Shown here piece by piece: positions 39,926-63,900 of a stretch of 64,000 bases of DNA; position 1 is the stretch's first letter, and each line of letters starts with the position of its first letter. Location: NCBI GenBank assembly GCA_964606485.1, contig CAZSGP010000001.1:161085-225084 (forward strand), given 5' to 3'. Source of the stretch: an uncultured Planctomycetia bacterium. Lineage in GTDB: Bacteria; Omnitrophota; Gorgyraeia; 2-02-FULL-51-18. Made by a program: the position numbers and the translations under genes. The notes beneath the pieces were generated by a model. It searched no databases. It saw nothing but the letters and a program-made list of their open reading frames with translations, and was not told the DNA's origin.

Positions 39926-39946
39926 CTAAGGTAAACGGAGGATGGA

Positions 39947-40537
39947 ATGAAGAAGCAGACTGTTGTTATTTTGGGGTTGGGATTGCTGGTTTCAGTGTGC
40001 CTAAGCACCGCGCAAGCGGCTGATTCTAAAAGCGATTCTAAAATTGAAAAAAAGTTGGCCGAAAACCAAGCCAAAAGAAAAGCCGAGTTGAAAGACACAG
40101 AGTGGAAGGTGACCTTTTATTCCAATAAACCGACGGATAAAGACGCGGAAAATGGATCACTTGTCTTCTCCGCCGAAACGATGACATTCAATGGTTTTAA
40201 TAAAGTAGATCTTGGGACCATTGGTTATACGCTGACGGCCTATGCGGACAATGACAAGGGAATGCTTGAAACCTATAAGCCCACAAAGGATGGAAATATT
40301 TCGTTGCGGGCTGATTGGCAAGGACAGATCATGAATGGTGTTATCAGCGAGCAGAAAAATGGTGGTAAGGATGTAAAGACTTACCGCTTCACCAGCGTGA
40401 ATCAGGTTTCGCCTTTAGCGAATCAAGATGAATCAAAAAAGGAGTCTTTGGAAGCGGCGGCTCCGGTAGATGCGGCGCTCCCAGTAATGGCATCAACTGA
40501 AAAAGCGGTTGAAAAATCCGAAAAGAAGAAGCGCTGA
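39947..40537 (+). CDS. Small secreted protein (signal peptide + ~100-aa TEWKV-type beta domain), unknown function
   Basis: Signal peptide MKKQTVVILGLGLLVSVCLSTAQA and a strong SD (GGAGGA). The domain core DTEWKVTFYS...ADWQGQIMNGVISEQ...KTYRFTS is shared with the C-terminus of the next gene. Confidence 0.5.
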   Translation: MKKQTVVILGLGLLVSVCLSTAQAADSKSDSKIEKKLAENQAKRKAELKDTEWKVTFYSNKPTDKDAENGSLVFSAETMTFNGFNKVDLGTIGYTLTAYADNDKGMLETYKPTKDGNISLRADWQGQIMNGVISEQKNGGKDVKTYRFTSVNQVSPLANQDESKKESLEAAAPVDAALPVMASTEKAVEKSEKKKR

Positions 40538-40564
40538 TCTTCTATCGTATTGAGATTTCTGTAA

Positions 40565-40598
40565 ACAAGGGGGTCTTTCAAGGACCCCCTTGTTTTTT
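40565..40598 (+). terminator. Rho-independent terminator
   Basis: ACAAGGGGGTC-tttcaag-GACCCCCTTGT followed by TTTTTT (11-bp GC-rich stem, 7-nt loop, U-run), 28 nt after the stop at 40537. Confidence 0.8.
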
Positions 40599-40609
40599 AA
40601 TATCCAAAA

Positions 40610-40638
40610 TTGACACCGCTGTATGTCCGCACTATGAT
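40610..40638 (+). promoter_or_regulatory. Sigma70-like promoter TTGACA-17-TATGAT
   Basis: TTGACA 40610-40615, TATGAT 40633-40638, 36 nt upstream of the ATG at 40674. Confidence 0.5.
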
Positions 40639-40673
40639 AGCCCTGTGGTAAATATTGCGACCCTCAGAGACTG

Positions 40674-41909: not shown

Positions 41910-41997
41910 TCCACCAAAAATTTAATTAAATCTATATATTATATTTACTAACAAAATTGATAATTTAAATTCGTTTTCATATTAAATATTTAAGCTA

Positions 41998-42026
41998 TTG
42001 ACAAAGGAGTTAACACAATGTAATCT
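41998..42026 (+). promoter_or_regulatory. Candidate promoter TTGACA-17-TAATCT inside an AT-rich 238-nt intergenic region
   Basis: TTGACA 41998-42003. The -10 is weak. Region 41910-42000 is about 80% A+T with A/T tracts (UP-element-like). Confidence 0.3.
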
Positions 42027-42147
42027 CTTAGTAGTGGAATTTGATCTTTGATACTGGTGCTAATAGTTGGCAATCGCTGGGAGTGGTATGCGCGGTTGCT
42101 GATTTTTTTGATAAAAGAATCAAAGTGCCAGGCACTAAGGGCTGAAA

Positions 42148-42903
42148 ATGACAAAAAAATCAAAGAAAGTGAATGTTAAACGTAAAAAATTAACAAACGA
42201 AGAGAGAATTTTTCAAGACTCTCTCGTTCGTAGTGCGTGGCGTCGCTATCGTGTCAATAGTGCCGCATATATTTTTGCCTCCCTAGTTCTTCTAATGAGT
42301 TTTTCCGCATACGCAGAAACCGAAGCCACTAAAGTTGCGAAGCCTGTGCCAAGCGCTAAAGCGCCATCTTCTCTTGCTAGTAAAGAGGGGGAGGCGAAGT
42401 CAGACACCACGGCCAAGAAAGCAGATCTTGCACCAGCAAAAAAAATCAAAAAAAATAGAGACGTGAGAGAGCCTTTCTCAAAATTTAAACTTCCGGATGT
42501 AAACGAAGCGGATGACAAGGAGCCAAGCACCTCCAAATATTTAAAAGGCCGGATCTCGACGATCACCGCTTACGGGATGGGAATTGTCTATGGTGGCGAT
42601 CCGACCATCGGACAGTTGGAATCCTGGAATAATTTTAATAGTAAGACCAAGATCGACGGATTTAAAAAATTCACCGATCTAAAAGAAGGGGACACCGTCG
42701 AAATAAACTACAAGCAAACGATTAAAACCCATAAAAGGATATTGGCAAGAGTTACGCTGGTTCACAAAATGACTAAGGAAGAAAGAGCGGCTGAAGAAAA
42801 GGCTTTGATGGATACGCCGGATGAACCCGTGGTTCCGGAGCCAGTCGCGGCAGTTAAACCCGTTTCAAAAGGAACGACCAATGGCGCAGGCAAAGCACTT
42901 TAA
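42148..42903 (+). CDS. Lys-rich signal-anchored/secreted protein, unknown function; 3' end overlaps the giant gene's start
   Basis: Hydrophobic segment AAYIFASLVLLMSFSAYA followed by a K/A/E-rich low-complexity stretch and a ~110-aa globular C-terminus. The stop at 42901-42903 is 20 nt after the ATG of the giant ORF. Confidence 0.4.
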   Translation: MTKKSKKVNVKRKKLTNEERIFQDSLVRSAWRRYRVNSAAYIFASLVLLMSFSAYAETEATKVAKPVPSAKAPSSLASKEGEAKSDTTAKKADLAPAKKIKKNRDVREPFSKFKLPDVNEADDKEPSTSKYLKGRISTITAYGMGIVYGGDPTIGQLESWNNFNSKTKIDGFKKFTDLKEGDTVEINYKQTIKTHKRILARVTLVHKMTKEERAAEEKALMDTPDEPVVPEPVAAVKPVSKGTTNGAGKAL

Positions 42904-45900
42904 AGCCAAATCGTTTTTTGCGACATCGCTAATTCTAGCGGGGCTGTGTTTATTTTTTACAGCGGACGCGCATGCGGTGCAAATCAAAAAAATCTATAGA
43001 GGCACGGTCAACTTCGATTTTGACGACGTGTCGCAATCGGTGGATATCGGCGCTGCGGTGGACACCACCAAATCCATTGTTCTTTTATCGCTCACCGCGG
43101 AAGGATCCTTCACCGAAGCCGATCAAAACTGTTTTTTTGCGGCGCAGTTTGAAGATGCGAGCACGCTTTACATTGACCGCGCGGGTGCTACCAAAGCGGC
43201 AGGTGTTATTTGGCAGGTGATCGAATTTAACGACGGCGTCAATGTTCAAAGAGGAATTACCAGTCTTCCCAATGGAACGGCATCGCAGTATTTAACAAAA
43301 ACCATCGATTTGCCGGCAGCGCTTACGTCAACATCCACCGCAGTGCCGATTCTTTTTACTCGCATGGCCTACACCAATACTGATTTTACGCATGTTATGA
43401 TGGTTGTTCCGACTCTCCCCAATGTCAATCAATTAACGGTTTCACGCCTTCATAATTCTAAAACTGCTAAAACGGTGACCATGGTGTGGCAGATTATCGA
43501 ATTTTTGAAAGACGCGTCCGTTGTCACCGGCACAGCGACGCTGCCTCAGCCTGGAGCGGTGACGATTGATCAAACGCTCAACGTGGATATATCAGGCATG
43601 ATCACGCTCAATAACGGAGGGCAGAACGCGCTGCTTTTTTTCTCGACGCAAGCCGGTACGGCAATAGCGGGAACGGACGCGCGCATCTTTGTTCGCGGTA
43701 GAATCACGTCGGCAACCAACTTGCAATTCATCCGAGCTTATGCCTCGAATAACGCCAATATGACGGTGCCCATCCGTTACTATGTCGTTGATTTAAAGGA
43801 ATCCACCTCTGGTAATGCGCTTGGGTATGGAAATATCTACGGCAGCACCACGGAGGGTCCTGGGATGACCCCCAACCCCAATCTTCGATCGATTTCAAGC
43901 TCCACGAACACCACACCTATTATGATCCAAATGAGCAATACCCACGGCTTTAACGCAAGCGGCGGCCAGTGGGTGACGATTAACGGCCATAATACCAACA
44001 CGAACGCGAATGGCACGTGGAAGGCAATTGTCGGCGTTAATTGCACAAACGGGACTGCCGGAGCCGGCGATTGCACGACTTCTCAGTTTGAGTTAACCGG
44101 TTCTATCGGAAACGGCGTGGGTGGCGCCACGGGTCAGGTTTGGATGAATCCACAAACTTTCGTTGTGAGCACTGCTACCAATGCGAATCCAATCGTTGTC
44201 ACGACCAGTGCTGTCAATAATTTTGAAACAGGGCAGCGTGTGCAGATTGTTGGCGCCACCGGCAACACCGCGGCCAACGGCACTTGGATTATCACAAAGT
44301 CGGGTACGGTAGGGACGCAATTTACGATTCCCGTGGCCGGAAACGGTGCTTACGGGGCAAACAGCGCCTATGTTCAGCCGGTTGATCTTGCCGTTACAAA
44401 TAAAAATATTGCCGCTTCCACGAATGCGACGCCGATTAGCATAAATATTAATGCTCATGGCTATGCGACGGGTCAGTACGTGAGAGTGGCTAACCATACA
44501 CCCAATACCGGGGCCAATGGACAGTGGTTTATCACTGTTACGGATGCTAATAACTTTACTTTAAATGGTTCGGTGGGAAATGGCGCCACTTCGGCCACTG
44601 GTACGGTGGGCGTTTCAAATATTGCGATTACGTCGTCCACGAATGCGAGTCCTATCAGTCTTAACGTAGCCAATCACGGTCTGGTTTCTGGACAGTTGAT
44701 CCGAATTTTAAGTCATGTCACCAATACAGCCGCCAACGGGGTTTGGTATGTCACCGTGACGGACGCTAATAATTTTACGCTCAATGGTTCGACTGGGAAT
44801 GGTGTGGGCGGCGCAACGGGCGTGATGTTTCCGATCCCCACGGGTTGGCGCATTGAATCCAGCGACGACTTGGTGTATCCAAACGAAATTACTTTAACGT
44901 GCACCGCGCACCCTTTTTCAAATGGGCAGCTGATCAACGTTTCTAATCACTATATTAACAACAGCACCACGAACTCCACGGCCAACGGAAACTGGATTGT
45001 TAAAAGCGCAACGGCCAACACGCTGACCTTGACCGGATCTTTGGGTACCAACGGCGACGGGTCCGGTGCGGGTGGAAGAACCGGTTGGATCACCCCCGCA
45101 AACGTGAATGCCATTCCGGCATCGAGCGTGGAGAGAACAATCGTGATTCCGTCGACGTCCGTATCGGGCAGCACGCAAAATAATACAGCCTCAGAGGCGA
45201 GGATGGCGAGCTACTTGTCGAGCCCCACCACGCTTCATTTTATGCGCGATATCACCGCTAAAACGTTCCCTGCGGATTTTAACGTCTCTATTTTTGAATT
45301 CCCGTCAATCACCCTGACCTACCCAACGACGGCGACCTCTCTAACGGTGGGAACGAGCTATCCTTTTACATGGAAAAATTCTTTGGATGTGGCCGCCCAC
45401 GATTACAAAGTCCAATTTTCGGTTGATGCGCCCCATGCGGTTTGGAATGATCTGGGTAGTGTTTGCGTCGATGGAACCCAGTCTTGTCAAGGATCCCTGC
45501 AGACGGCGCCCACGACCTTAGCGGCCGGAACAGTCAACGTGAAAATCCCTGATAATCTTGGAACCACGGCTAAGTTTAGAATTTGGGATGTGGTGGATGG
45601 CGCTACGCTAGCAGCCGTTCGGGTTAGCGACGCTTCGAACGAAAATATGAAACTGATTAGAAATTTGACGTTGACGGATCCAGTGGGCGGCGAAAATTGG
45701 ACAGTGGGGGATCTTAAAAATCTGACTTGGACTTTTAGAGGTTTTACGAATTTCGGGACGGTGAAAATAGAGTACTTCGACGGCGCGTCTTGGGCGACGG
45801 TGCCGGGTGCCGGAACATTGGCTGTGAACAACGGGGGCGGTTCGAGCGACCCGTTCGCCGGAACAGGTTCGTTTACTTGGTCCCAGATTCCCAATCTCAC

Positions 45901-48900
45901 CGGAACCAATCAGGCGCTGGTTAAATTTAGAATTGTCGCCAATGATTCTGCCATTGATGGAACCGCTTTTACGAGCACCTCCGGAAATCTTACCGTTCGG
46001 CGGGGACTGACTCTCACGTCTTTAAACTCAGGAACCTACAACGACCAAACACCTATCGATATTACCTGGGATTATTTGGGTGAAAAGACCGCCGATGCGT
46101 TTGACTGGGGAAACTTAAAATTCGAATTTTGTAATAACGGTGTCTGTGCCCAACCCTCGGACTGGACCAGTCTTCCGATTACAACGGGCCCAACGACTTA
46201 TCTTGCGGATCAGGCGGTGAATATTAATGAGACGGGAACGCCTCCTTTTTCAGGAGCCGGTAAGTATGTTTGGACAATTCCGACCGGCTTTACCACCAAC
46301 GGAGCGCAAGCCAAGATCAGAATTTCAAGTGCCAGCGATCCTAGCATTATTCAGACGTCCTCAAGTTTTTTTACAATCAATCCGACGGTCAGGTTGCTCA
46401 CTCCCTCATCTACGGGCATTGTGATGTACCGCGGGGGAAGTTCGTATGACATTACTTGGACAGCAGATGCTTCTATTGCGAACGTAAAACTGGATTATGC
46501 AACTGATGGCGTAACGTTTAGCAATCCAATTGCGGCGAGCGTGGCTTCTTCAGGCGTGGGCACTAATACTTACTCATGGACCGTGCCGAATAATGTCGGA
46601 ACCAATGTAAAAGTAAAAATTGGAAATGCCGATACGATCGGCATCTACCCGCCAGGCTCATTCACCGCGGTTTCAGCAAATCCATTTACGATTAAAGGCA
46701 GTATCGACGGCATTACACCCAATAGCGGAACCGTTCCTTATGCTGCTCCTTCTGTTTCGGTCACCTGGAACTCCCACGGAGCTTTAGGAAATGTGAAAAT
46801 ATTTTTATCATCCGATGGCAGCACCTCCAATTTTCCGACTCAGCTAAATTCCGGATCGGTGGCAGGCGGCAATGACACCAGCAGTCCCAACAGTTTTTCA
46901 TGGGATTTGACAAGCCCCAGCATTCCGCCGGGAACGTACGTGATCCGCGTTCAAGAAGTGGATGGGGGCGGTACTCCGATCGGGGATGTTTACGGTGATT
47001 CTTCCGCGACATTTAAAGTGGTTGGAGCGATAGCGATTACGAACCCTCCGGTGAATCCGAGTCCTCCGACGTGGGTTGTAAACCAAAATGATGCCACGAC
47101 ACTTTTAACTTGGACAAAAAATCCAGGCTCGCTTGGAAACGTGAAGGTGGAATATTCCATTGACGACGGCGCGACGTGGCCGGGCGGCGCTCAAATCATC
47201 AGCGCTTCCAACAGTGGAACGACGCAAGCATTTACCGTGCCGGCATCCGCGGTGAGCGCAAGTTACATGAAATTCAAAGTTAGCTTGGTCAGCGATCCAA
47301 CCAATGTTCAGGCAACGTCTGACCGCGTCAAAGCCAGAGGCACTTTGCAAGTTGTTCTCCCCAATGCCACGACTGATATTTTAAAAGTTGATCAATCGTA
47401 CAACATCACGTGGACCAGCAAAGATTTCCTAAATAACGATTTGAACTGGGACAATGTCGATATCAGCTATTCCTTTGACGGAACGATTTATACGCCCATT
47501 ACTGGCGTAAACGGCGTTCCGGCCATTCCAGCGGCGTACTCCTGGACTCCCGATCCCGCTGTTCAAAGTGACACGGTTAAAATTAAAGTTCAGGGCCACA
47601 CTTACACCGACGTCGCAGACACCTCGGATAATTTTTTCAAAATTAAACCGAATATGGTTATCTTGACGCATAACGGCGGCGGCGCTCCAATCTGGTACGT
47701 CGACGCATATTCTGCCGCCGCGAGCATCACCTGGGAAACGCATGCGAAAGCGGGAACTGTCAATAACGTGAATCTTTATTATTGCAAAGGCGCTTTGGCG
47801 GATGATTGCGCAGGTTCAGGAACGTGGAACGCGATTCCGGGAACGGCGGGACTTTCGAATATTAATGCCTACAGCTGGAGCGTGGCGGATGCGATCGGGC
47901 CCTACACCCGTGTGAAAGTGGAGCCTCTGGTAAACGGAGCGACCGACGCGACGCTGGCGGATATTTCCAACAATGATTTTACGATTCGCGGCGCTTTTGA
48001 GTTTGTTCAGCCGGCCGCGGCGGCGATTTTAAGAGTGGGTGCTACGCCCACCATTCAGTGGACGAATCACGGCACCATGCCGAATGCGCCGACTCCGAAT
48101 ATTTCGATTAAATATACGCTGAACGGGTCAGTTTACACGGATATTGATGGCTCGCAACCTTTGACAAATGCCGCAGCGTATGGTGGTCACACCTATAACA
48201 CTTGGACGATTCCAGACGCGGCACGCGGAGCAGTGGGACTCAAAATTCAATGGGAAGGGGACGCAGCCAATGTGAATGCGACCCGCGCCGTTTCAATCAA
48301 GCCCGATATTGTGATCAATTCTCCCAACGGCCTCACCTACCACATTGGAGATACGCCCGTGATTGAATTCACTCATACGGGACGCACGTCGGATACTTTT
48401 AAAGTCCGCTACTCCATCGACGGCGGCACAAACTGGAGCGACGCGGGAGCGAGTCCTACGGTGACCAGTGTCGCGCCGAACACGCCTTACACTTTCTCGC
48501 CGGCACCGGCGTTTACGATTCCAAACGACACTGGCATTGTGGTGCCGAATCAATTTAAAATCCGCGTGGAGCTTGTGGGTGATGAGACCGATGTGAAAAA
48601 AGATTCGGCCGTGAACACTATTTTAGGGAAATTGGCACCGGTATCGGCGCCGGCGGGTCCTTGGACCGCGGGTGTGACGACCCCGAATATTACGTGGACG
48701 CCCCAGGGAATCACGACGGTTAAAATCGAATACGCAACCGACGGAGTCACTTTTTCGAACGTCATTAACAATACGGCCACCGGAAATAATTATACGTGGC
48801 CGGCCATTCCCGGCTCGGCCGTCAGCGACAATGTCAAAGTTCGTGTCACCGCGCAAGACGCTAATGATAGCGTCACTTCCGTTACAACGGGCAGTGCCGT

Positions 48901-51900
48901 GACAATTTTACCGCAACTGGTTTTAACGGCTCCGAATGGACCTCTGGCGCGTTACGTTGGAGATGCATTGCCAATTACGTGGAATAGCACGGGTGCCGGA
49001 AATATTAAAATTGAATATACGTCCGATGCCGATCAGGTGACCCCAACTTGGACAACGCTGCCGGGCTATGGCACGGTGGACAGCACGCCGCAGAGCGCTT
49101 CGAATGCGTCGGTGCCGAATGTGATCAGCAATCATGTGAAATTTAGAATTACTAATTTAAACGCGAATCCTGCTTTGGTAGTGACAAGCGAGTCCTCGAT
49201 TGAATTTCCGATTAAGGGTTCGCTGGTTCTAAATTCTCTGACTGCGGCCGGACTTTCTTACACATTGGGCGATCAGCCGGATGTGAGCTGGACTCCCAAC
49301 GGAAGCATTGGGGATATCACTGTGGAATATTATAACGGTTCGAGCTGGAGCACGCTCACAACGACTGCTCCTGAAAGCGGGCCGTTTTCACTGCTATTGG
49401 ATGCGGCAAATGGAATCACCACTGCCACCAATTTAGCAAAGGTGCGTATTTCTGCAACAAACGGATCAACCGCCGTCATCGCATCTGCCAATGCTTTTAT
49501 TGTGAAGCCGCTTATTTCTGTTACGGCACCGTCGGCCGGAAATGATGTCTGGAGAGTGGACGATTCCAACGCCGTCGGGACGGAGCGCTTTATTACCTGG
49601 ACTAAAAAAGGCGCCAACATTGCCAATGTGAAAATCGAATATTCTACCGATAATTTTTCGAGCGACATCAACGAGATTTATGCGTCGACAGCGAACGACG
49701 GCACGCAGAGTTGGTCCGCTTCAGCGGGTGCTACTTCCGACGTTCCGGACGTGATTAACCCCTCGCCAAATATCAAAATTCGAGTTTCGACATTGCCCAC
49801 TTCAGACCCATGGGCTGTTTCGGCAACTTCTTCGGTTTTTAGAATTATCGGACAATTGCGAATGGATACTCCTGACGATGCAACTCCTGCGAAGTGGACG
49901 ATTAATTCCACAAAAACAATCGGGTGGACCAACTTGCACGGAACTATCGACAATGTCAAAATTTATTATTCAACGGCCGGCGATGGAGGCCCGTGGACCA
50001 TACTCCGCAATAGCGGAGGCACTATTGCTACTGTCCCATCAGGGGGTCCCGGAGCTCACACTTACGATTGGGCGATTCCTGACGATTTTCCGATTGTAAA
50101 AGATGATTTTAGATTGAAGGTTGTGGACGCCGACAATTCAAATGTGGAAGATGCGTCCACCGCCGCAAGCTCTACGCTTTCCAAATTTACTTTCGTTCAT
50201 CCCATCACAACCGACGTGTGGGTGGCCGAAACTACGCATACCATTCAGTGGACCACTGCTCAAGCGGGTGTCCCGGCAAACGTCAAGATTGAAGTCAACA
50301 CCGGTTCGGGATGGACCAATCTCGTTGAGAATGAAGGAACGGCCAACGATGGCATCATCGTGAATGATGGATCTCAGCCGTGGCTTCTTTCCGCAACAAG
50401 ATCGCTTGCCGCGCAAGTGCGGATTTCAGATCCTTCAAATTCAACCGACAGTGTGACGCTGAGCCAAACTTTTAAAATCAGAGGAGATTTAACGGTTCAA
50501 ATTCCATCTGATGGAACGCAGTCATGGAGTGTTGCTGCGAGCAATGCCGACACGCATGCGATTACTTGGGTGAAGAAGGGAAATATTGCGAACGTTAATC
50601 TTCAAATGACCAAAGACTTTACCGCCGGAACGCCGGTGTGGGAAAATCTTGCGGACGGGACAACACCGACGCCGCAAGTCACGCAAAATCTTGATGTAAC
50701 CGGAAGCGCTAATGGCCCCTACACCTTTACTTGGGTGGTTCCGAATATCGCGGGTATCACGACTACCAAAGCAGCTATTCGCGTGGTAGACGCTTCTGAC
50801 GGAACTGTTTTGGATGACTCCGATAATATCTTCACGATCAAAGGAAACGTTGCACTCACCGCCCCGAATGGGGGAGGCACTTACGCTGTCGGAGACTCAA
50901 TCACGATTAGCGGCACTTTGTTCGGTCCGATCACAAAGATCCGTCTTTTCTATACCAAATTGGGCGTGAATTACAATCTGCTCGGAGTTGCCGGTCAATA
51001 TTCGACCATGGACGTTGGCGGAGCGTCTTTTACGACGAGCAGCAATCTGGTTCCGAATTTAATTGGAAACGGAATCACGATGACGGTGCAGGACGATTCG
51101 AACACCACCGTTCAAGATGTGTCCGATGCGAGCTTCGGTTTTAAAGGCAATGTCGGCATCACCGCTCCGACCACAGCCGGCACAACAGGTTCACCGTTTA
51201 TCGCGAATACTTCTCAGGATATTGTTTGGGATCGCTTTGGCTCGATCGGCAACATGACGTTTTATTACAGCGTAAACGATGGCCCCTATACGGCGGTCGC
51301 CGGCGCCGGTGCTGTTCCGTCCCCCTCAGCTAGCGGCAATACTTTTTCATGGACGGTTCCTGATGATTCCATTGTTTCGAACAATGTTAAAATTAAAATG
51401 ACGGGACCCGATCTTTATAATGATGTGATTTCCGAACCCTTTATCGTGAAAGGCAGTATTGCAATCAACGCTCTGGCAGGTCCTTATGTGTTGGGGGACG
51501 ATGTCAATTTAACGTGGACGGCTCACGGAGACATTGGTGTTGTCAAAGTTGAATATTTTGACGGCACGGGTTGGAACGTGATCACAAGCTCCGCGCCGCA
51601 AAACGGACCCTATACACTAACTCTCGACACCGCTACTGGTATTACAAAAGCAACAAACATTGCTCAAGTTCGAGTTTCTGCGAATGCCGACCCGGCGGTT
51701 GTCTCAACATCCGGACAATTTATGGTGAAGCCGCTCATCACTGTGACGGCACCTGCGTCCGGTAATGATATTTGGAGAGTCGACGATTCCAATACGGTGG
51801 GAACGGAGCGACTCATCACATGGACCAAGAAAGGTTCAAACATTGCGAATGTGAAGATTCAGTATTCTTCCGATAATTTCGTGAGCGATATCAACGACAT

Positions 51901-54900
51901 ATATGCGACTACCGCCAATGACGGAAGTCAGAGTTGGTCGGCCGCACTCGGCGCAACATCCGATGTACCGGATAATATCCGCACCTCTAAAGATTTGAAA
52001 GTTAGAGTTTTAACGTTGCCGACTTCCGATCCATGGGCGGTGTCTGCCTCCTCCGCTGTTTTCCAAATCATCGGTCAGCTCACGATGGATACTCCGAATG
52101 ATGTGACGGGAGTCAAGTGGAGAATTAATTCCACGAACACGGTTGCCTGGACCAATACGCACGGCTCTATTGACGACGTAAAAATATATTATTCGACCGA
52201 TTCGGGAACGAACTGGACGATTATCCGTAATTCCGGGGGTAACATTGCGTCTGTTCCTTCGGGATCTGCCGGACAACAGCATACTTATGACTGGGCGATT
52301 CCCGACGACTTTCCGATTATTAAAGATACTTTTAGATTAAAAGTCGTGGATTTCGGAAATGCCAATGTCGAAGATCCTTCGACGGCCCTAAGCTCGACGC
52401 TTTCGAAATTTGTCTTCACGCATCCCATTTCGACTGACGTTTGGGTTGCTGAAAACACTCAAACCATTCAATGGACCACGGCTCAAGCAGGTGTGCCCAC
52501 CAATGTGAAAGTGGAATACAACGTCGGTGGCGGCTGGACGGTGATTAGCGAAAACGAGGGAACGGCCAATGACGGCATTATCGTTAATGACGGCACCCAA
52601 CCTTGGACGCTTCCGTCTACAAGATCTTTGGCGGCTCAAGTCAGAATTTCAGATCCAGACGATGTGAATAGTATTACGAACAGTCAGGCCTTTAAAATTC
52701 GCGGCGATCTGACGATGACCGCACCCAATACCGGAACCGAGTCGTGGGGGGTTGGTATCAATAATGGTGACACGCACGCCATTACCTGGACTAAAAAGGG
52801 AAATATCGCCAACATCAATTTGCAAATGACAAAAGACGTTACCGCCGGAACTCCAGTGTGGGAAAACTTGGTTGATGGAACCACGCCGACTCCGCAGGTG
52901 ACACAAAATATCGATGTCACCGGAAGCGCCAACGGACCCTTTACGTTTAACTGGGTGATCCCGAATGTTGCGGGTATCACCACGACCAAGGCGGCGATTC
53001 GCGTGATTGACGCCTCTGACGGAACCGTACTAGATGATTCGGATGCGATGTTTACGATTAAGGGTACGGTGCATTTGTCGAATCCCAACGGCGGCGGCTC
53101 TTACGCGGTCGGTAGTGTGATCACGGTTGATGGAACCGTGTTTGGTCCGATTACGAACGTGCGTCTTTATTACACCAAGAGCGGCACGGATTATGGGTTA
53201 AACGAAGTTGTTGGCGGTCAAGTGGTGGCGGTCACGGGTTCCAATTTTACTAAACAATGGACGGTTCCGGATAGAATTGGGACGGGAATTACCGTTCGCG
53301 TGGAAGACGCATCAAACTCCGTCGTGCAGGATCCATCCGATGCCGGCTTTGGCATTAAAGGAAATGTTGCGATCACCGCTCCGACGACTGCAGGAACCAC
53401 TGGAACGCCGTTTATTGCGAACACCGCTCAGAATATTATTTGGGATAAATTCGGTTCGATCGGCAATATGACATTTACTTATAGTGTCAATGACGGACCC
53501 TATACGGCGGTATCGGGAGCCGGCGCGGTTCCTTCGCCTTCCTCCACAAATAATACTTTTTCTTGGACGGTGCCAGATACTGGAATTGTTTCGACCAACG
53601 TCAAAATTAAAATGTCCGGCAGCGATCTTTTGAATGACGTGATCTCAGAGCCATTTATTGTTAAGGGGAGCATTGTCTTAAACGCTGTTACCGGTCCTTA
53701 CGCTTTGGGTGACGATGCCAATCTCACTTGGACGGCTCACGGAGATATTGGTTTTGTGAAAGTAGAGTATTTCGACGGCACAGGCTGGAATGTTGTGACG
53801 ACCACCGCTCCTCAAAATGGCCCTTACACGATCACGCTGGATTCTGGCGCAAGCATCACCAAAGCCACAGATATCGCACAAGTGAGAATTTCATCGGCCG
53901 CTGATCCCGCAGTTGTTTCGACATCCGGTCAATTTATGGTCAAGCCGGTAGTGGCTATCACAAGCCCTGCGGGTGGCAATGATATCTGGGTGGTGGACGC
54001 GGTCAAAAATATTACGTGGAATAAAAAAGGCTCAAATATTGCCAACGTAAAAATTGAATATTCGAGTGATAATTTCGCCGCCGACATAAACCCGCTCACG
54101 GGCGCTGAATTCACAAACGGTGACACCACTAACGACGGAACAGCCTCATGGATTGTTCCGGATAACTTGCGTTCTTCCAAAGATCTGAAAATCAGAATCC
54201 GAACTTTAGCGACAGCAGATCCTTGGGCTGTCACAGCTGTTTCCGTCCCCTTCCAAATCATCGGTCAACTCACTATGGACACTCCCGATGACTCAACCGC
54301 AGTCAAATGGAGAATCAATTCCACGAACACCATTGCTTGGACCAACACGCACGGCGCGATTCAAAACGTAAAGATCTATTACTCTTCAGCAGGGGACGGA
54401 GGTCCTTGGACTCAGCTTCCCGGTACTGGAAACATTGGGTCAGGTGCCGCCCAGCAACAACACACTTATGATTGGGCTATTCCCGACGACTTCCCGATCA
54501 TCAAAGATACCTTTAGATTAAAAGTGGTCGATGCAACAAACGCCAACGTGGAAGACGCGTCTACTGCAGTGAGTTCGACCCTCGCAAAATTCACCATCTC
54601 TCATCCAATCTCATCCGATATTTGGGTTGCTGAAAACACTCAAACTATTCAGTGGGCCACTGCTCAAGCGGGTGTGCCGGCTAATGTGAAAGTGGAGTAC
54701 AACGTTGGAGCGGGTTGGGTTCCTATCAACGAAAATGAGGGAACAGCTAATGACGGCATCATTGTGAATGATGGGACGCAGCCTTGGCTCTTGACTGCCA
54801 CCCGATCTCTTGCGGCACAGGTGAGAATTTCAGATCCGAGTAATTCGGACAGCATTGTGAATAGTCAGTCGTTTAAGATTAGGGGAAGCTTAACGATGAC

Positions 54901-57900
54901 AGCACCCAACACCGGAACGGAGTCTTGGGGAGTGGGTGTCAATGATGCTGATACTCACGCCATCACCTGGACTAAAAAGGGAAATATCGCCAACGTCAAT
55001 TTACAATTAACCAAAGATTTTACGGCCGGAACTCCCGTTTGGGAGGATTTGGTTGATGGAACGTCTACTCCTCAAAACACACAAAATATTGATGTCACCG
55101 GAAGCGCCAACGGACCCTTTGCTTTTAACTGGGTGATACCGAATGCGGCGGGTATCACCACCACGAAAGCGGCGATTCGCGTGATTGACGCTTCTGACGG
55201 AACGGTGTTGGACGATTCGGACGTGATGTTTACCATTAAGGGTAATGTGCATTTATCCAATCCCAACGGCGGCGGCTCTTACGCGGTGGGTAGTGTAATT
55301 ACCGTTGATGGCTCGGTGTTTGGTCCGATTGCAAACGTCCGTCTCTACTATGTCAAAAGCGGAACGGACTATGGCCTGAACGAAGTGGTTGGTGGTCAAA
55401 TTGTTGCGGTTGCCGGAGCGAGTTTCACCAAACAATGGACGGTTCCAGATCGTATTGGCACCGGTGTTACGATCCGCGTGGAAGACGCAGCCAATTCTAT
55501 TGTGCAGGATACATCCGATGCCGGTTTTGGCATTAAAGGAAATGTTGTAATTACAGCCCCGACGACTGCGGGAACCACCGGGTCTCCCTTTATCGCGAAC
55601 ACCGCTCAAAACATTGTTTGGGACCGCAATGGAACGATCGGGAATCTTACCTTCTACTATAGCGTCAATGACGGCGCTTACACGGCGGTGTCGGGAGCCG
55701 GCGCTGTACCGTCCCCCTTATTAACGGGTAATAGTTTTTCTTGGACGGTGCCGGACACAGGAATTGTTTCGACCAACGTTAAAATTAAAATGTCCGGAAG
55801 CGATCTTTTGGCAGATGTGATCTCTGAGCCATTCATTGTAAAAGGTACAATCGTGCTAAACGCGGTTACCGGGCCCTATACCTTAGGAGATGATGCCAAT
55901 CTTACTTGGACCGCTCACGGAGATATTGGTGTTGTGAAAGTGGAATATTTCGACGGCACGGGTTGGAACGTGGTTACAACATCCGCTCCTCAAAACGGAC
56001 CCTATACGCTGACGCTTGATTCCGGAGCGAGCATTACCAAAGCGACTAACATCGCCCAAGTGAGAGTTTCGGCCAACGCCGACCCTGTGGTGGTTTCAAC
56101 CTCCGGGCAATTCATGGTGAAGCCGTTTGTTTCGATCACAAGTCCTGCCGGCGGCAATGATATCTGGGTGGTGGATGCGACAAAGAATGTGACGTGGAGC
56201 AAAAAAGGTTCGAATATTGCGAATGTTCATATCGATTATTCATCCGATAACTTTAGCGCTGACGTCAACAATCTAACGGGCGTTGAGTTCACGAATGGTG
56301 ACACAACGAACGATGGTACAGCGCAGTGGATTGTTCCGGATAACTTGCGTTCTTCCAAAGATCTGAAAATCAGAATCCGTACTTTACCATTAGCGGATCC
56401 ATGGGCGATTAGCGCAACTAGCGTCCCCTTCCAAATCATCGGTCAACTCACCATGGACACTCCCGATGACTCAACCGCAGTCAAATGGAGAATTAATTCC
56501 ACCAACACCATTGCTTGGACCAACACGCACGGCGCGATTCAAAACGTAAAGATCTATTACTCTTCAGCAGGGGACGGAGGTCCTTGGACTCAGCTTCCCG
56601 GTACTGGAAACATTGGGTCAGGTGCCGCCCAGCAACAACACACTTATGATTGGGCTATTCCCGACGACTTCCCGATCATCAAAGATACCTTTAGATTAAA
56701 AGTGGTCGATGCAACAAACGCCAACGTGGAAGACGCGTCTACTGCAGTGAGTTCGACCCTCGCAAAATTCACCATCTCTCATCCAATCTCATCCGATATT
56801 TGGGTTGCTGAAAACACTCAAACTATTCAGTGGGCCACTGCTCAAGCGGGTGTGCCGGCTAATGTGAAGATCGAATATTCATATGACAATACGAATTGGT
56901 TTTCCATAGCAGAAAACGAAGGAACGGCTAATGACGGCATCATTGTAAACGATGGCACTCAACCCTGGGCATTGCCCGCGACAAGAGCGCTTGCCGCGCA
57001 TATCCGCATCTCAGATCCGAATGATGTTAGCAGTATCGTGTCTAGCGACGCCTTTAAGATTAGAGGCGATTTGACCATAGACATTCCAAGCGATGGAACG
57101 CAGTCATGGGGAATTGGTATCAATAACGCTGACACCCATACGATTCAATGGACGAAAAAGGGAAGTATCGCCAACGTCAACTTACAAATGACCAAAGATG
57201 CTTCCGTTGGTTCTCCTGTATGGGAAGATCTAGTAGATGGAACCACACCTGCGGGTCAGGCGACTCAAAATATTGATGTCACCGGCAGTGCGAATGGCCC
57301 TTACACATTTAACTGGGTGATTCCTAACACTGCGGGTATGACAACGACGAAAGCAAAAATTCGCGTAGTGGATGCGTCCGATGGAACGGTGCTCGACGAT
57401 TCTGATTCTATGTTTACCATTAAGGGCAACGTACACTTGACCGGCCCTAATGGCGGTGGCAACTACGCTGTGGGAAGTGCGGTTACGGTGAACGGATCCG
57501 TATTTGGTCCGATCACTAGCGTCCGTCTGTATTACACGAAGAGCGGCACGGATTATGGACTTAACGAAGTGGTGGGTGGCGATGTGGTGGCCGTCTCGGG
57601 CTCAAGTTTTACGAGACAATGGACGATCCCAGACCGGATTGGCTCAGGAATCACTGTCCGGGTGGAAGACTCCACAAACTCACTGATTCAAGATACGTCC
57701 GATGCCGGATTTAATATCAAAGGCAATGTGGTGATCTCGGCTCCCACGACTGCAGGAACCACCGGCACGCCGTTTATCGCGAATGCGTCGCACAATATTA
57801 TTTGGGATCGCAACGGATCCATCGGCAACATGACTTTTTATTACAATGTGAACGATGGAGCGTGGACGGCTGTGTCGGGCGCCGGCGCGGTTCCTTCACC

Positions 57901-60900
57901 TGCACTGTCCAATAACAGTTTTGCGTGGACGTTGCCGGACACGGGAATTGTTTCAACCAACGTTAAAATTAAAATGTCCGGCTCAGATTTATTGGCGGAT
58001 GTGATCTCCGAACCCTTTATCGTCAAGGGAAGCATTGTGTTAAACGCGGTACCGGGCCCTTACTTTTTAGGAGATGATGCGAATCTCACCTGGACGGCTC
58101 ACGGTGATATTGGAAATGTCAAAGTCGAATATTTTGACGGCGCGGGGTGGAACGTGGTTACAACTGCCGCTTCTCAGAACGGTCCCTACACCCTGACACT
58201 GGATGCGGTGAACAGTATCACCAAAGCAACCGACATCGCACAAGTGAGAATTTCCTCTAACGCTGACCCGGCCGTTGTTTCAACCTCGGCACAATTCCTC
58301 GTCAAGCCGCTCATTACGGTTACAAGTCCTGCGGGAGGCAATGATATTTGGGTAGTGGACGCCGTTAAAAATATTACCTGGGATAAAAAAGGTTCAAATA
58401 TTGCGAATGTTCACATTGATTATTCAACCGATAACTTTAATACAGACGTCAACAATCTCACCGGTGCTGAATTTACAAATGGAGACACGACGAATGACGG
58501 CACCGCTTCGTGGGTGGTTCCGGATAACTTGCGTTCTTCAAAAGATCTGAAAATCAGAATCCGCACATTGCCTTTGCCGGATGCGTGGGCAGTATCGGCA
58601 ACATCTGTCCCCATTCAGATTATCGGTCAGCTGACCATGGACACCCCCAATGACGTCACGGGAGTGAATTGGAGAATCAACGCGACGAATACCGTCGCGT
58701 GGACCAACACGCACGGCGCCATTCAAAACGTAAAAATTTATTATTCTTCGGATTCCGGTACAAATTGGACCGTTATCCGCAATGCCGGCGGCAGCATCGG
58801 AAACATCTCATCGGGTGCGGCTGGCCAGCAGCATACTTACGACTGGGCGATTCCCAGTGACTTTCCGATTATCAAGGATACGTTTAGGCTTAAAGTTGTC
58901 GATGCATCGAATGCCAACGTGGAGGACCCCTCAACGGCCGTTAGTTCCACTCTAGCCAATTTTACGTACACGCATCCAATCTCCTCGGATGTGTGGATCG
59001 CGGAGAACACTCAAACCATTCAATGGGCGACACCGAGCGCGGGTGTTCCGGCTAACGTCAAAGTGGAGTATTCCTATAATGACACGAACTGGTTCCCGAT
59101 CGTAGAAAACGAAGGCACGGCCAATGACGGCATTATTGTGAACGATGGCACTCAGCCTTGGGCGCTTCCGACGACTCGGTCGCTTGCCGCTAAAATTAGA
59201 ATTTCAGATCCGAATGATTCGACGAACAGCGCCATCAAGAGTCAGGCCTTTAAAATTCGTGGTGATGTCACGCTGACTGCGCCAAACTCTGCTTTGTCAT
59301 GGGGTATCGGTGTGAACAATGCGGATAATCACGCGATTACTTGGACAAAGAAAGGGGATATTGCCAACGTTAATCTTCAGTACACCAAAGATGCCTCTGC
59401 TGGAACCGTGGTTTGGGAAGATTTGGTCGACGGCACAACTCCGACGCCCAATGCCACACAAAATATTTCGACAGCGGGCTCAGGGCCCTTTACCTACAAT
59501 TGGGTCATCCCTAATATCTCCGGTATCATTACAACGAAAGCCAGGATTCGCATTATCGATGCTTCCGACTCGACGGTTTACGACGATTCGGATGTGAACT
59601 TTATCATCAAGGGTAACGTGGGTATTAGTTATCCGGATGGATCGGTGAATTATGCCGTCGGCAGTGTCGTGACGGTGACGGGAACGATTTTCGGTGACAT
59701 CCCACAGATTCGCTTAAGTTACAACAAGGGTGGAACGTGGTACGGTTTGAACGGAGTAGTGGGTGGTGCGCTAGTGGATTCCGCCGGAACAACCTACTCT
59801 TATGATTGGACGATTCCCGACGCGATCGGCAACGGCATTTACGTGCGCGCAGAAGATTCGAACAACAACACCGTCGGTAGCAATTCTCCGACATTTGGCA
59901 TTAAAGGCAATGTGGCGATCACGGCGCCAACGACTATCGGCACGACAGGGTCTCCGTTTATTGCCAACACCGCTCAGAGCATTGTCTGGGATCGCAACGG
60001 TACGATTGGAAATCTCACTTTTTCATATAGCGTGAATAACGGAGCCTACACCGCCGTTGCCGGTGCGGGTGCCGTGCCGTCGCCATTATTAACGGGCAAT
60101 AGTTTTTCTTGGACCGTCCCTGACACCGACATTGTTTCAACCAACGTTAAAATTAAAATGTCCGGCGCCGATCTCTTGGCGGATGTGATTTCTGAGCCCT
60201 TTATTGTGAAGGGCACCATTGCGCTTAACGCGGTGACAGGGCCTTATACGCTTGGGGATGATGCCAATCTGACTTGGTCTGCTCACGGAGATATTGGGCT
60301 TGTGAAAGTGGAATACTTCGACGGCACCGGTTGGAACGTGATCACAACCACGGCTCCGCAGAATGGGCCCTATACGCTGACACTGGATGCGGTCAATAGC
60401 ATCACCAAAGCCAGCAATATTGCACAAGTTCGCGTTTCCGCGGCCTCCGATCCGGTCGTAGTTTCAACCTCGGGGCAATTCATGGTGAAACCGTTTATTG
60501 TCATTACGGCACCCACCGGTGGAAATGATATTTGGGTGGTTGACGCAGCGAAAAATATTACCTGGACAAAAAAAGGTTCGAATATTGCGAATGTGCGCAT
60601 TGATTATTCATCCGATAACTTTACAAACTCAGATCTTTTAACCGGCGCCGAATTTACGAACGGAGACACGCCCAATGATGGAACGGTGTCTTGGGATGTG
60701 CCGGATAATATTCGTTCAGCCAAAGATTTAAAAATCCGCATTCGCACGCTTCCGCTTTCCGACACGTGGGCGGTGAGTGCGAACTCTGCCCCATTCCAAA
60801 TTATTGGCCAGCTCACCATGGACACGCCGGATGACACGACACCCGTGGTGTGGAGAATTAATTCAACCAATACCGTTGCTTGGACCAACACGCACGGCGC

Positions 60901-63900
60901 GGTTCAGCAGGTAAAATTATGGTATTCGTCAAACGGCGACTCCGGCCCGTGGACTCAACTTCCCGGAACGGGCAATATCAACTCCGGTGCGGCCGGACAA
61001 CAGCATACGTATGACTGGGCAATTCCCGGAACATTCCCAATCATCAAAGATAATTTCCGTATCAAAGTCAGTGACGCTGCCAATGCAAACGTTTTTGACC
61101 AGTCCACAGCGGCGAGCTCCACCATCGCAACGGTAACTTTTGCGCATCCAATCTCATCCGATGTTTGGGTAGCGGAAAACGCGCACAATATTCAATGGAC
61201 GACTCCTCAGGCGGGTGTTCCGACCACTGTAAAACTAGAATACAACGTCGGCGGCGGTTGGGTTTTGGTCCCAGAAAATGACGGAACGGTTAATGATGGT
61301 ATTGTAACGAATACTGGAACGCGGTCGTGGACGTTGCCGACCACAAGATCTTTGGCGGCAAAAGTCCGCATTTCCGATCCGAACGATGCCAATAGTATTG
61401 TCGAAAGCGATCCGTTTAAAATCCGCGGTGATCTGACTGTGACTTCTCCGACGCTCGGCTCCGAAGCGTGGGTGGTGATGACGACTCACGACATTACGTG
61501 GACGAAAAAGGGAAATATTTCCGCAGCGAACTTGCAAATCACAAAAGACGCTACCGTTGGAACGCCAGTTTGGGAAAATTTAGTGGATGGAGATGCCAAC
61601 ACCACGCAAAATATTTCACTTCCGGGAACGGGCCCATATACTTTTACGTGGAGAGTTCCAAATGATCCCACCATCATGAGCTCCAAAGCAAGAATTCGCG
61701 TGGTGGATGCTTCCGATCCAGCGGTCTACGATGATTCGGACACCAATTTTACAATCCAGGGCCGATTGACATTGAACGCAGCGGTGCCCAATCCACTTTA
61801 TGTGGCTGATATCTATTCCATTGCCTGGACTCGCGAGGGCACGATTCCAACGGTGAAGGTGGAGTACTCGGTGAATGGCGCACCGTTTCAATATTGCTTG
61901 GATGCTGTGACGGCACCGGCGGACAGTGTTGTGGCCAATTCCTTTAACTGGAAAGTTCCCGACAGCATCAACACCAATGTGATCTTGCGCATCAGCAATA
62001 CCGATGCGACAAAGCCGACGATCGTTGCTTCTTCCAACACCTTCGCCATCAAAGGCCAAATCGCTTTGGATGCGCCTACGGCAGGTCTACTCTGGAAAGT
62101 GGATGACTCCAATGCCATTCAATGGACACCCACGGGTACGATGGGAACGGTCAAGCTCGAGTATTCGAAAGATGGATTTGCGACAGCGGGCATTCCGGTC
62201 ACCGGCCCCGCCAATGAAAGTGCTGCTGCGCTTTCCGCGGGTGTGAGCGGCGTGCAACAAAGTTTCACCTGGAAAATTCCTAATGACATCAACGACACAG
62301 TGACCGTGAAAATTTCACCCAACGTAGTAACTCAGGCTGCTGCAGTCGAGTCCGGTGTATTTAAAATTGTCGGTGCTTATAAATTGCTGACTCCCAACGG
62401 TGGTGGAGGACAATTTTTTGAAGTGGATGGCTCGACTCCGATCACATGGGAAAAACACGGAACGGTGGGCGCGATCCGTATTGATTATTCGACGAATGGG
62501 TTTTTAAATGAAACTCAGACGATTACGATTGCAGACTCCATTGCGAATCCCGGATTGGTTCAGCCGGGCGACTTGAGTTACTCATGGACCATTCCAAACT
62601 CAATCGGTGGAAGCGTGCGCGTCAGAATCTCGGATCCGTCTGTAGGGGTTTCCACAGTTGCGGACGGTTCTGACAACGATTTTGCAATCCGCGGAAAGAT
62701 TGATGTTTCGGCTCCTGCGGGCGGCGAAGTGTGGCTGATTGGAAGCGATCATACTATTCAGTGGGCGAAACATGGAACGATGCCGGCTGTAAAGGTGGAG
62801 TATTCGATCGGCGGCGGCGCGTATTCTTACGTGAAAGATGCGGGCGGAGTCGACGCGACCAGTGTCGCCGGAAACTCTTATTCATGGCGCATTCCGGATC
62901 AAAAAACATTGAACGGCGCTCGAATCAAAGTGACCAATCTATCGGACCAAACCAATGTTTACACTATCAGCAATCCTTTAACGATTCGCGGTGGTTTTAG
63001 CTGGCAGTTTCCGAATGTCGCAGGCCAGGTCTTTAAAGTGGGGACCACACAAAACCTGACGTGGACAACGTTCGGTACGATCACGAACGCGTCTCTTGAA
63101 TATTCGAATAATAGCGGATTTTCGTACCAGTCGGTGAAGGATGCGGGCGGTGCGGACGCAACCGGATTTATCAACACCGGCAGTTTCAACTGGGTGATTC
63201 CCAACGATATCTCAAAAGACGTCTACATTCGCATTAAAGACGCTTCAGATCCTGACGCCAAAGATATCACGCCGAAGATTAAAATTGCGGGCACGCTTTT
63301 TGTGGATCAGCCCGTGGGAACGTCGCGGTGGGGCGTCGGATCCACGCAAAGCATTATTTGGCATTCCACCGGATCCATTCAGAATATGAAAATTGAATAT
63401 TCAACCGATGGCGGATCGAACTGGGTGGTTCCGGCTATTCAGGATCTGGTTCCCGTGAGCAATGGAACACAGGCTTGGCTTATTCCGAACGCCGTCACGG
63501 CAAATGCCATGATTCGCATCAAGGACGTGATTTCAGATAGCGGTTCCGATCCGGTTACTTCCAATCCGTTCAAGATCACGGGTACCTTCTCATTTCTTGC
63601 GCCGCTTGCCGCTGATGTGTGGCCGGTAACGACAGGAGAAATTGCCAACACGACACGAAATATTGTGTGGTCCACTCAGGGTAATGTTACCTCGATTAAT
63701 TTACGCTACTCACCAACTGGCGCAGCGCCTTGGACACTGATCAACACCGCTGGTCCAATTGCGGATGGTGGGAATGGCGGTTCTTATACCTGGACGGTTC
63801 CCGATAGCATCAGCGCTTCGACAAAAATTTTAATTGAAGATAACGCCGATAACCAGACCAACACTTCTTCTGGAACGTTCACCGTTCGCGGGGATTTGAA

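Follow-up and report, generated by a model that had tools for sequence, protein, structure and literature searches.

The question raised by the locus described here is whether a long array of domain blocks in a giant bacterial gene is still gaining and losing units, or was built long ago and has since been largely fixed. The locus lies in a stretch of 64,000 nucleotides (nt) from an uncultured Planctomycetia bacterium that GTDB places in the Omnitrophota (assembly GCA_964606485.1, contig CAZSGP010000001.1, positions 161,085 to 225,084). We refer to this whole stretch as the window. Coordinates are those of the window unless another contig is named, and all window features discussed are on the forward (+) strand. 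A single open frame without a stop codon occupies the last third of the window (42809–64000) and remains intact over 21 kb. It carries a hierarchical tandem array in which a block of seven different domains, here called a supermodule or unit, recurs with a period of about 2.2 kb. We think it likely that this array is the central, stalk-coding part of a giant gene, and that it consists of ancient, conserved seven-domain supermodules in which one recent short gene conversion has taken place.

The array spans 49220–61762 and has the structure G + 5×(ABCDEFG) + ABCD, as found by self-BLASTN, by comparison at the protein level, and with hidden Markov models (HMMs) derived from the units. Tandem Repeats Finder gave no output for 40000–64000 because the longest period that it handles is 500; the array was then mapped by self-BLASTN together with k-mer matching. 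Self-BLASTN of 42809–64000 returned one family of diagonals, at 49496–61761, with offsets of 2223, 4413, 6591, and 8760/8775 nt. The 40 domains of the array amount to 5.7 units, five of them complete and the sixth truncated. Complete units encode 726–745 amino acids (aa), and periods range from 2178 to 2235 nt. Unit 1 (U1; 49220–51454, 745 aa) is the most divergent. It is followed by U2 (51455–53668, 738 aa), U3 (53669–55846, 726 aa), U4 (55847–58030, 728 aa), and U5 (58031–60214, 728 aa), and the array closes with U6 (60215–61762, 516 aa), which is cut short to G, A, B, C, and D, without the last two domains.

The unit-derived HMMs confirmed seven domain types of 93–120 aa each. Different types share 13–32% identity, whereas domains of the same type share 47–100% of their amino acids (mostly 54–92%). 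The array thus combines several distinct sub-repeats in a strict GABCDEF order, at least three copies, and a far greater similarity between domains in the same position than between neighbours, which are the features of a higher-order tandem repeat. Whole units are 61–79% identical in nucleotide sequence and 58–84% in amino acid sequence, and U3 and U4 are the most alike (78.6% and 84%, respectively). An initial annotation, made from the sequence without database searches, had described seven domain types of ~100 aa in a ~730-aa unit with a period of 2177–2223 nt, and copies that, apart from the third and fourth, were clearly diverged. These features are all recovered here, with the measured periods given above replacing the earlier ones. 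The six supermodules that it placed at 49200–61750 were correctly located, but their number has to be revised to five full units and a sixth of five domains.

The divergence among units indicates their age. Synonymous divergence (dS), estimated by the Nei–Gojobori method (NG86), is saturated in all 15 unit pairs (1.5 to >2.5, or undefined), with nonsynonymous divergence (dN) of 0.14–0.35 and dN/dS of 0.04–0.12. Identity between units is 44–52% at third codon positions and 84–92% at second positions; it is because third positions have diverged that amino acid identity equals or exceeds nucleotide identity for most unit pairs. When calculated domain by domain, dS is saturated nearly throughout. 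The exceptions are domain B of U3 and U4 (dS 0.04, dN 0) and domains D to F of U2 and U3 (0.75–1.08), and values are intermediate in the parts that flank the U3–U4 tract described below. Since dS is saturated and dN/dS is low, the units are old and constrained, that is, ancient duplicates each held by purifying selection. One recent exchange is visible in the array, and perhaps one older.

Over a longer time, the units have exchanged sequence repeatedly. An incompatibility test of the pairwise homoplasy index (PHI) type on 469 informative sites gave 0.364, against 0.438 ± 0.004 under permutation, and none of 200 permutations reached a value that low. The nearest relative of a unit also shifts from domain to domain; for U5, reading from G to F, it is U3, U4, U2, U4, U3, U2, and U3. 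On the strength of these two results the array is a recombination mosaic that arose from repeated exchange over a long time, in keeping with the mosaic pattern suspected at the outset.

The recent exchange is confined to a single tract shared by U3 and U4. Within U3, the domains are G (53669–53947), A (53948–54265), B (54266–54592), C (54593–54886), D (54887–55243), E (55244–55540), and F (55541–55846). The tract covers 54244–54690 in U3 and 56422–56868 in U4, at an in-frame offset of 2178 nt (726 codons). Its 447 nt contain three mismatches (54274, 54316, and 54325; 99.3% identity), and the longest exact repeat, 365 nt, pairs 54326–54690 with 56504–56868. The tract takes in the last seven codons of A, the whole of B, and the first 33 codons of C, ignoring domain borders, and ends abruptly on the right at 54691. 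To its left lies an exact patch of 53 nt (54149–54201, matching 56327–56379), with 42 nt, 17 of them mismatched, between it and the main tract. All-pairs sliding identity and exact k-mer extension found exactly one near-identical tract in the array; apart from it and from satellite patches of 41 and 53 nt, exact matches between units are at most 36 nt long. The self-comparison therefore does contain a diagonal above 95% identity, that of the U3–U4 tract. The initial annotation had copies 3 and 4 sharing identical stretches of more than 400 nt. There is in fact a single stretch, and the length applies to the 99.3% tract rather than to exact identity.

A chance origin of the tract is excluded. 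U3 and U4 differ at 467 of 2178 aligned sites, and in 10,000 permutations the longest run of matches averaged 27 nt and never exceeded 61 nt; the analytic probability of an exact run of 365 nt is ~3e-36. For the tract itself dS amounts to 0.04 and dN to 0, whereas outside it dS between U3 and U4 is ~2.05 (1.81 in G, 2.05 in D, 2.51 in F, and saturated in E). Local identity that extends to synonymous sites, diverged flanks on both sides, and a length beyond chance are together what marks a gene conversion tract, and short-patch gene conversion is the mechanism that fits its length and borders.

An assembly artefact would offer a different account, in which the identity of the tract or the number of units was created by bubble popping or by a wrong path through the repeat. 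The source is a metagenome-derived contig of 546 kb, and exact-sequence clusters of the neighbouring proteins have members in one NCBI contig and in Logan only. One Logan contig, SRR12487046_619, matches window 32148–52903 at 100% identity. From its coordinates and its 3,766-aa partial gene, its end falls at window position 54178, 30 nt into the 53-nt exact patch, such that this independent k=31 assembly fails to cross the site. Logan is built on an edge-centric graph with k=31, which would explain how the contig crosses the repeats of 30 nt at 52784 and 52913. U3 and U4 differ at 54148, and 54178 is the final base of the last U3-unique 31-mer ahead of the exact patch. A break at precisely this point means that the raw reads hold the repeated sequence in two contexts, which argues against an artefact, though it is not proof of the 365-nt exactness or of the unit count.

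The homologues described below bear on the same issue. Their identical tracts likewise come from short-read metagenome assemblies, with many contigs ending there, and the tracts that can be observed are biased towards lengths that an assembler can traverse. Most homologous contigs end inside their own arrays, two of them within exact repeats; together with the Logan break at 54178, this bears out the earlier warning that short-read assemblies fail at such arrays. Against an artefact, bubble popping acts on variants only a few per cent apart. It could mask a few true differences, but it could not turn flank divergence of 20–30% into identity, and the true identity of the tract would still be very high. 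Moreover, the frame is intact over the whole 21 kb, unit-specific flanks lie on both sides of both tract copies, and the same pattern recurs in several independent assemblies. We therefore regard an artefact as unlikely. As contigs of this family usually end inside the array, the gene lengths and unit counts annotated in metagenome-assembled genomes (MAGs) are lower bounds, which is a concrete assembly hazard.

Genome and metagenome scans recovered loci with the same GABCDEF order at 49–65% identity, and the distant metagenomic homologues number about 15. The order is present in L002, L003, L004, L005, L006–L016 and in P0147, P0149, P0153, P0155, and P0006–8 (our own locus and protein labels). 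The MAGs concerned are labelled Omnitrophota, Eisenbacteria, Planctomycetia, and Gammaproteobacteria, with GC contents from 46% to 65%. An exhaustive search of representative proteins returned 1,776 matches at E ≤ 1e-3 and 398 at E ≤ 1e-30, many of them of 2–7 thousand amino acids (kaa). The few members that have a source name at all read “hypothetical protein” or carry a generic PF10342-type name. Complete homologues measure 6.4–6.9 kaa.

Unit number differs widely among these loci. It is ~1.6 in P0149, 2.3 in L014, 2.6 in L016, 3.3 in L013, 3.6 in L004, at least 3.7 in L007, at least 4.9 in L011, and 5.4 in P0147/L010 (a complete protein of 6,910 aa), compared with 5.7 in the window and at least 8 in ORBV01000018.1. 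The last of these arrays, taken from the European Nucleotide Archive (contig positions 203394–225466), corresponds to L009 and L012 merged. The exit from the repeat takes one of three registers, with A, C, or D as the last domain. Internal units are mostly closest to units of the same genome, whereas edge units are positional orthologues across genomes. The first G domain of the window array, that of U1, has the first G domains of L004 and L003 as its positional orthologues, and is 66% identical to that of L004 against 46–47% to the other G domains of its own array. Similarly, U6 is the positional orthologue of the terminal unit of L005 (78–83% per domain, and 80% over A to D, against at most 68% to units of its own array), and the pair L011.1 and L011.2 corresponds to the pair ORBV.7 and ORBV.8.

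Several of these arrays carry identical tracts of their own. L004 has one of 309 nt between its units 1 and 2, L002 one of at least 120 nt at the extreme end of its contig, and L011 one of 124 nt, also at a contig end. In ORBV01000018.1, an exact repeat of 3,131 nt has an offset of 4230 nt, that is, two units, and units 2–3 are 99% identical in protein to units 4–5. This repeat represents either a very recent two-unit block duplication, a long conversion, or reuse of an assembly path. Since other arrays carry their own identical tracts and unit numbers differ, copy-number change and conversion are recurrent in the family. Copy-number variation is demonstrated between lineages only.

Such variation could also be taken, along the lines of the initial annotation, as the mark of a contingency locus, in which a hypervariable number of units between cells or strains would alter fibre length or antigenicity. 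The wide range among homologues is compatible with this, and on general grounds an exact in-frame tract of 365 nt would be a competent substrate for RecA-type recombination. Repeat-number variation in surface proteins is also documented elsewhere, for example in cagY (PMC2194252). A hypervariable array is nevertheless difficult to reconcile with exact inter-unit matches that, outside the tract and its 41- and 53-nt patches, reach no more than 36 nt, with saturated dS and purifying selection on every unit, and with the positional orthology that edge units and some internal units have kept between genomes very far apart. For long genes of the Omnitrophota, a survey in preprint form likewise finds that their repeats are not recent expansions (10.64898/2026.06.07.730766). 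We consider a contingency locus distinctly unlikely.

Recent unequal crossing-over is very improbable as the origin of U3 and U4. Under this explanation the two units would stem from a recent whole-unit duplication, and unit number would have changed recently. They are indeed the most similar pair in the array, and the 3,131 exact nt in ORBV01000018.1 have the signature of a block duplication. Had a whole unit been duplicated recently, however, its two copies would match over an entire period (~2.18 kb). The observed identity is limited to 447 of 2178 nt, with abrupt borders and a dS of ~2.05 beyond them. Of the two processes that the initial annotation had offered for the recent event, conversion is thus retained on the contrast in dS, and crossing-over is not. 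Selection alone, by which domain B of U3 and U4 would be identical because its protein sequence is required, is extremely improbable even though this domain is well conserved across the family, because the identity includes synonymous sites (dS 0.04 against ~2) and disregards domain borders.

We therefore favour ancient duplication followed by conservation, with occasional conversion. The duplication unit is the supermodule G-A-B-C-D-E-F of ~730 aa and not the single domain. The array would have grown long ago by in-frame unequal homologous recombination at the register of the supermodule, and the two-unit block in ORBV01000018.1 would be the best direct trace of such growth. From then on, each copy has remained under strong purifying selection while its synonymous sites drifted to saturation. 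At 61–79% nucleotide identity the units would be poor substrates for recombination, leaving the array largely stable. Occasional short-patch conversion between neighbouring units would persist, and the newest instance is the ~450 nt at the end of A, in B, and at the start of C in U3 and U4. Because no other long run of identity is left in the array, this tract would be the likeliest site of any future in-frame gain or loss of one 726-aa unit. It is a reasonable inference that unit number sets fibre length. An Ig-like domain extends ~4 nm; one unit would thus measure about 25–30 nm, and the 40-domain array about 150 nm.

Repeat hierarchies of other kinds were observed in the same family. In the first 6000 positions of L013 (Ga0163150_10003386), upstream of its GABCDEF array, a second and different super-repeat of six domains occurs twice with a period of ~2205 nt, and the contig ends within a 99-nt exact repeat of this six-domain super-repeat. 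In L004 (~13250–21760) and in L016 after its GABC exit, the super-repeat is followed by ~30 monotonous domains of ~95 aa. L016 also has short exact repeats at a 570-nt (two-domain) offset. These domains form another kind of repeat hierarchy in one and the same protein. It would seem that this family has acquired higher-order repeats on more than one occasion.

The domains of the supermodule are predicted to be immunoglobulin (Ig)-like β-sandwiches of ~100 aa. An AlphaFold2 model of domain B, built on a multiple sequence alignment of 58 window domains, has seven β-strands, with a predicted local distance difference test score (pLDDT) of 84.5 and a predicted template modelling score (pTM) of 0.79. 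Its top Foldseek matches are Ig V, fibronectin type III (FnIII), and RbmA domains, with TM-scores of 0.45–0.55. The corresponding model of U3 shows seven all-β domains with a mean pLDDT of 85.5 and a pTM of 0.53, as expected of beads on a string. In Pfam, one distal domain in 61763–64000 matches the Ig-like family PF10342 (Kre9_KNH) with 35.3 bits against a cut-off of 24.6, and precomputed PF10342 assignments exist for many homologues. The array and the flanking domains are linked by weak HMM matches only (8–36 bits). The whole supermodule had no NCBIfam match at E ≤ 0.01.

The giant open reading frame (42881–64000) is complete at its 5′-end and continues beyond the 3′-end of the window. Its likely start codon is the ATG at 42881, which is preceded by AAAGGA, followed by a signal peptide, and also called as the gene start in an independent Logan contig (L001). 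Counted from this ATG, the protein has at least 7,040 aa and is rich in Thr, Ala, Gly, Val, Ser, and Asn. The predicted Sec-type signal peptide, MAQAKHFKAKSFFATSLILAGLCLFFTADAHA (42881–42976), was read from the translation, and equivalent N-termini occur in the homologues P0148 and P0155. No hydrophobic run of 15 or more residues was found across the 7,040 aa. About 60 Ig-like β-sandwich domains are encoded within the window. Thirteen of them, outside the array, precede it (45305–49219) and match the domain HMMs built from the units weakly, with 8–27 bits. The array is followed by at least seven more domains that are not part of it (61763–64000), identified with the HMMs and including the one above the PF10342 threshold.

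Between the N-terminal module and the Ig-like domains, at aa ~335–775 (window ~43880–45200), there are five repeats of ~75–85 aa, each closing with (A/T)NGxW, for example NTAANGTWIITKSG. These repeats had no match in Pfam or among PDB sequences, and the N-terminal 808 aa of the protein had no relative among PDB sequences. The complete members P0147, P0148, P0149, and P0153 share an N-terminal module and a conserved C-terminal module. The latter consists of two β domains (YQITFEVRD...), a long coiled coil, a β domain, and a helical domain that ends in PVVHV(I/L)Y(E/Q/S). No transmembrane segment was obvious on reading the C-terminal regions of these four proteins. The C-terminal module may serve in anchoring or in recognition by the secretion machinery.

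Immediately upstream of the giant gene (35447–42903) is a cluster that may provide this family of proteins with export or assembly machinery of its own. Pfam and NCBIfam identify an ExeA/pepcterm-like ATPase (35447–36319), a GspC/B-like protein (36277–36990), a secretin of the PilQ/GspD type (36987–38786; secretin domain 1.6e-48 in Pfam), a coiled-coil/TPR protein (38783–39925), and a Y1-transposase-like membrane protein of 411 aa (40674–41909). Two proteins of unknown function complete the cluster, one of 196 aa (39947–40537) and one of 251 aa (42148–42903). In L003 the genes for the secretin, TPR, 196-aa, Y1-like, and 251-aa proteins and the giant gene are found in the same arrangement, and L002 has the last four of these. 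Synteny thus covers the segment from the secretin to the giant gene; the ATPase and GspC/B-like genes are outside the L002 and L003 contigs. On the basis of its architecture and this synteny, the giant protein is probably a Sec-exported, secretin-dependent extracellular fibre or adhesin, with the super-repeat as its stalk.

The 411-aa protein has a weak N-terminal Y1/IS200/RAYT-like domain, followed by a transmembrane helix and a conserved C-terminal domain. Its orthologues in L002 (1779–2987) and L003 (3484–4659) maintain 41–42% identity across three distant genomes. The HUH motif has been lost in all three, where the sequences read IMLLIE, LHLLIE, and LTLLIE. An IS200/RAYT mobile element was considered for this open reading frame and rejected, given the absent HUH motif and the conserved position of the gene in the cluster in two distant genomes. 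The protein gives the impression of having been domesticated as a membrane-anchored part of the cluster.

A repeats-in-toxin (RTX) adhesin exported by a type I secretion system (T1SS) was also rejected. The signal peptide is of the Sec type, the nearby ABC system is of the GldF/GldG (ABC-2) type and not a T1SS, and GGxGxD (RTX) motifs number zero in the complete homologues P0147, P0148, P0149, and P0153. The ABC system, of the gliding-motility type, adjoins the secretin cluster. It comprises an 815-aa fusion of a GldF-like permease and a GldG-like ABC auxiliary protein (31590–34037), with an ABC ATPase ahead of it and a DUF4340 protein after it (34034–35059). The first 30 kb or so of the window (1–30576) form a co-oriented glycan-biosynthesis cluster with at least 12 glycosyltransferases (GT1, GT2, GT4, and GT9), six FkbM-type methyltransferases, a carbamoyltransferase, a UDP-GlcNAc 2-epimerase, a PMT_2-like membrane glycosyltransferase, and a squalene-hopene-cyclase-like repeat protein. 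Homologues of the epimerase reach at most ~61% identity, and those with names are scattered over Omnitrophota, Latescibacteria, Nitrospiraceae, and Scalindua, such that they are at best suggestive of the taxonomy.

A number of observations weigh against the picture of an ancient, largely stable stalk on a secretin-dependent fibre. The tract identity and the unit count rest on one assembly. As to sequence from the same species, by which stability could be judged, an exact 28-mer scan of JGI metagenomes was empty, and protein searches gave no homologue above 55% identity. The fold assignment is faced with a supermodule (49217–51442) that has no Pfam match at E ≤ 0.01, a profile of 58 window domains that returned only insignificant matches among PDB sequences (for example, ceruloplasmin and FnIII), and Foldseek matches that are generic (E ~2e-3). 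The NCBIfam scores of the secretin are below the curated cut-offs (270 against 284 bits for PilQ, and 241 against 351 for GspD), as is that of the ExeA-like ATPase. GspE/F or pilin genes were not detected within the window, including the 42.9 kb upstream of the giant gene. The suggested link between the giant protein and the secretin is made through conserved gene order only, and the C-terminus of the protein falls beyond the window.

Long secreted stalks of tandem ~100-aa β-sandwich domains are well known from SiiE, the RTX adhesins of the LapA/MpIBP type, SasG, Ebh, and Bap. The arrays of these proteins use one or two domain types, often with near-identical DNA, and can be altered by intragenic homologous recombination. 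The window protein resembles the SiiE/LapA-type adhesins in being very long and consisting mostly of such domains. It differs in that its repeat unit comprises seven different domains and that the copies are saturated at synonymous sites; unlike RTX adhesins, it has a Sec signal peptide and an adjoining secretin cluster, with no T1SS genes nearby. A search of the literature on bacterial adhesins for super-repeats found nothing relevant.

An analogy is provided by the A-band super-repeats of titin, a eukaryotic, intracellular protein in which Ig and fibronectin type III (Fn3) domains form a seven-domain repeat in the D-zone and an 11-domain repeat in the C-zone, with a period that matches the thick filament lattice. 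As in titin, neighbouring domains of the window array are dissimilar (13–32%) and domains in the same position of successive super-repeats are similar (74–100%), with seven domains per unit and about six copies. There is no homology, however, and no periodic partner is known for the window protein. Low identity between neighbours in multidomain proteins has been linked to less misfolding. The combination of dissimilar neighbours with similar domains seven apart would match both titin and the idea of misfolding avoidance.

The pattern of exchange can be compared with cagY of H. pylori (PMC2194252) and with the repeats of other bacterial antigens (PMC4534519). Here as there, in-frame recombination between direct repeats leaves tracts of identity on a diverged background, and repeats at the edges escape homogenisation. 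Unlike in these systems, homogenisation in the window is infrequent and localised, a single recent tract being present in 12.5 kb, and nothing points to antigenic variation driven by a host or to high-frequency rearrangement.

Secretion-system loci beside giant genes, and a class of “tandem-repeat scaffold” proteins, have been described in the Omnitrophota (10.1101/2023.11.21.568195; 10.64898/2026.06.07.730766). The classes set out in these two reports are Archaeovorins (with HEAT repeats, enzymes, and transmembrane segments), dockerin/TSP3 types, and tandem scaffolds of a single Pfam domain, and the repeats of such genes are judged there to be ancient and not the outcome of recent expansion. 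The window gene is like the giant genes of Omnitrophota and the Planctomycetes–Verrucomicrobia–Chlamydiae (PVC) group in its signal peptide, its repeated extracellular domains, and the secretin/T2SS-like (type II secretion system-like) genes immediately upstream, and the closest syntenic homologue of its locus is in a MAG labelled Omnitrophota. It resembles the class without belonging to it as defined. Omnitrophota “giant genes” encode at least 30,000 aa and have a multi-subunit T2SS/T4P-like locus (gspD, gspE, gspF, and pilins) upstream (West-Roberts et al., 2023), whereas the protein has at least 7,040 aa here and 6.4–6.9 kaa in its homologues, and the upstream genes of this kind are only those for the secretin, the GspC/B-like protein, the ExeA-like ATPase, and the TPR protein. 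In term searches, “Ig-like” was absent from both papers and “Kre9” from the 2026 preprint, and the passages returned describe no repeat unit of several domains.

Giant surface proteins with Ig repeats, and intragenic recombination between repeats, are already familiar. What is new is that a super-repeat of seven domains is conserved, with a copy number particular to each lineage, in a secretin-linked family that had not been characterised. A bolder reading, which we regard as doubtful, likens the supermodule to the super-repeats of titin and sees in it a periodic unit with a function of its own, beyond its history as the block that was duplicated. Each unit would then present an ordered set of seven binding or spacing surfaces, the unit number of a lineage (1.6 to at least 8) would set the length and valency of a surface fibre, and its export and assembly would follow a dedicated, as yet undescribed pathway of secretin, ExeA-like ATPase, and TPR protein together with a catalytically dead, membrane-anchored Y1-like component. 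If this were true, saturated synonymous divergence would itself be favoured, as it would guard the array from recombinational collapse.

The analysis also provides a worked example of how ancient, selected repeats can be told from recent expansion by means of dS, a PHI-type test, and positional orthology. For the family itself, it defines a widespread and uncharacterised group of secreted proteins of up to ~7 kaa, one subfamily of which evolves by gain and loss of seven-domain blocks and offers a natural series, from 1.6 to at least 8 units, in which stalk length may be tested. Higher-order repeats, best known from titin, also arise in bacterial surface proteins.

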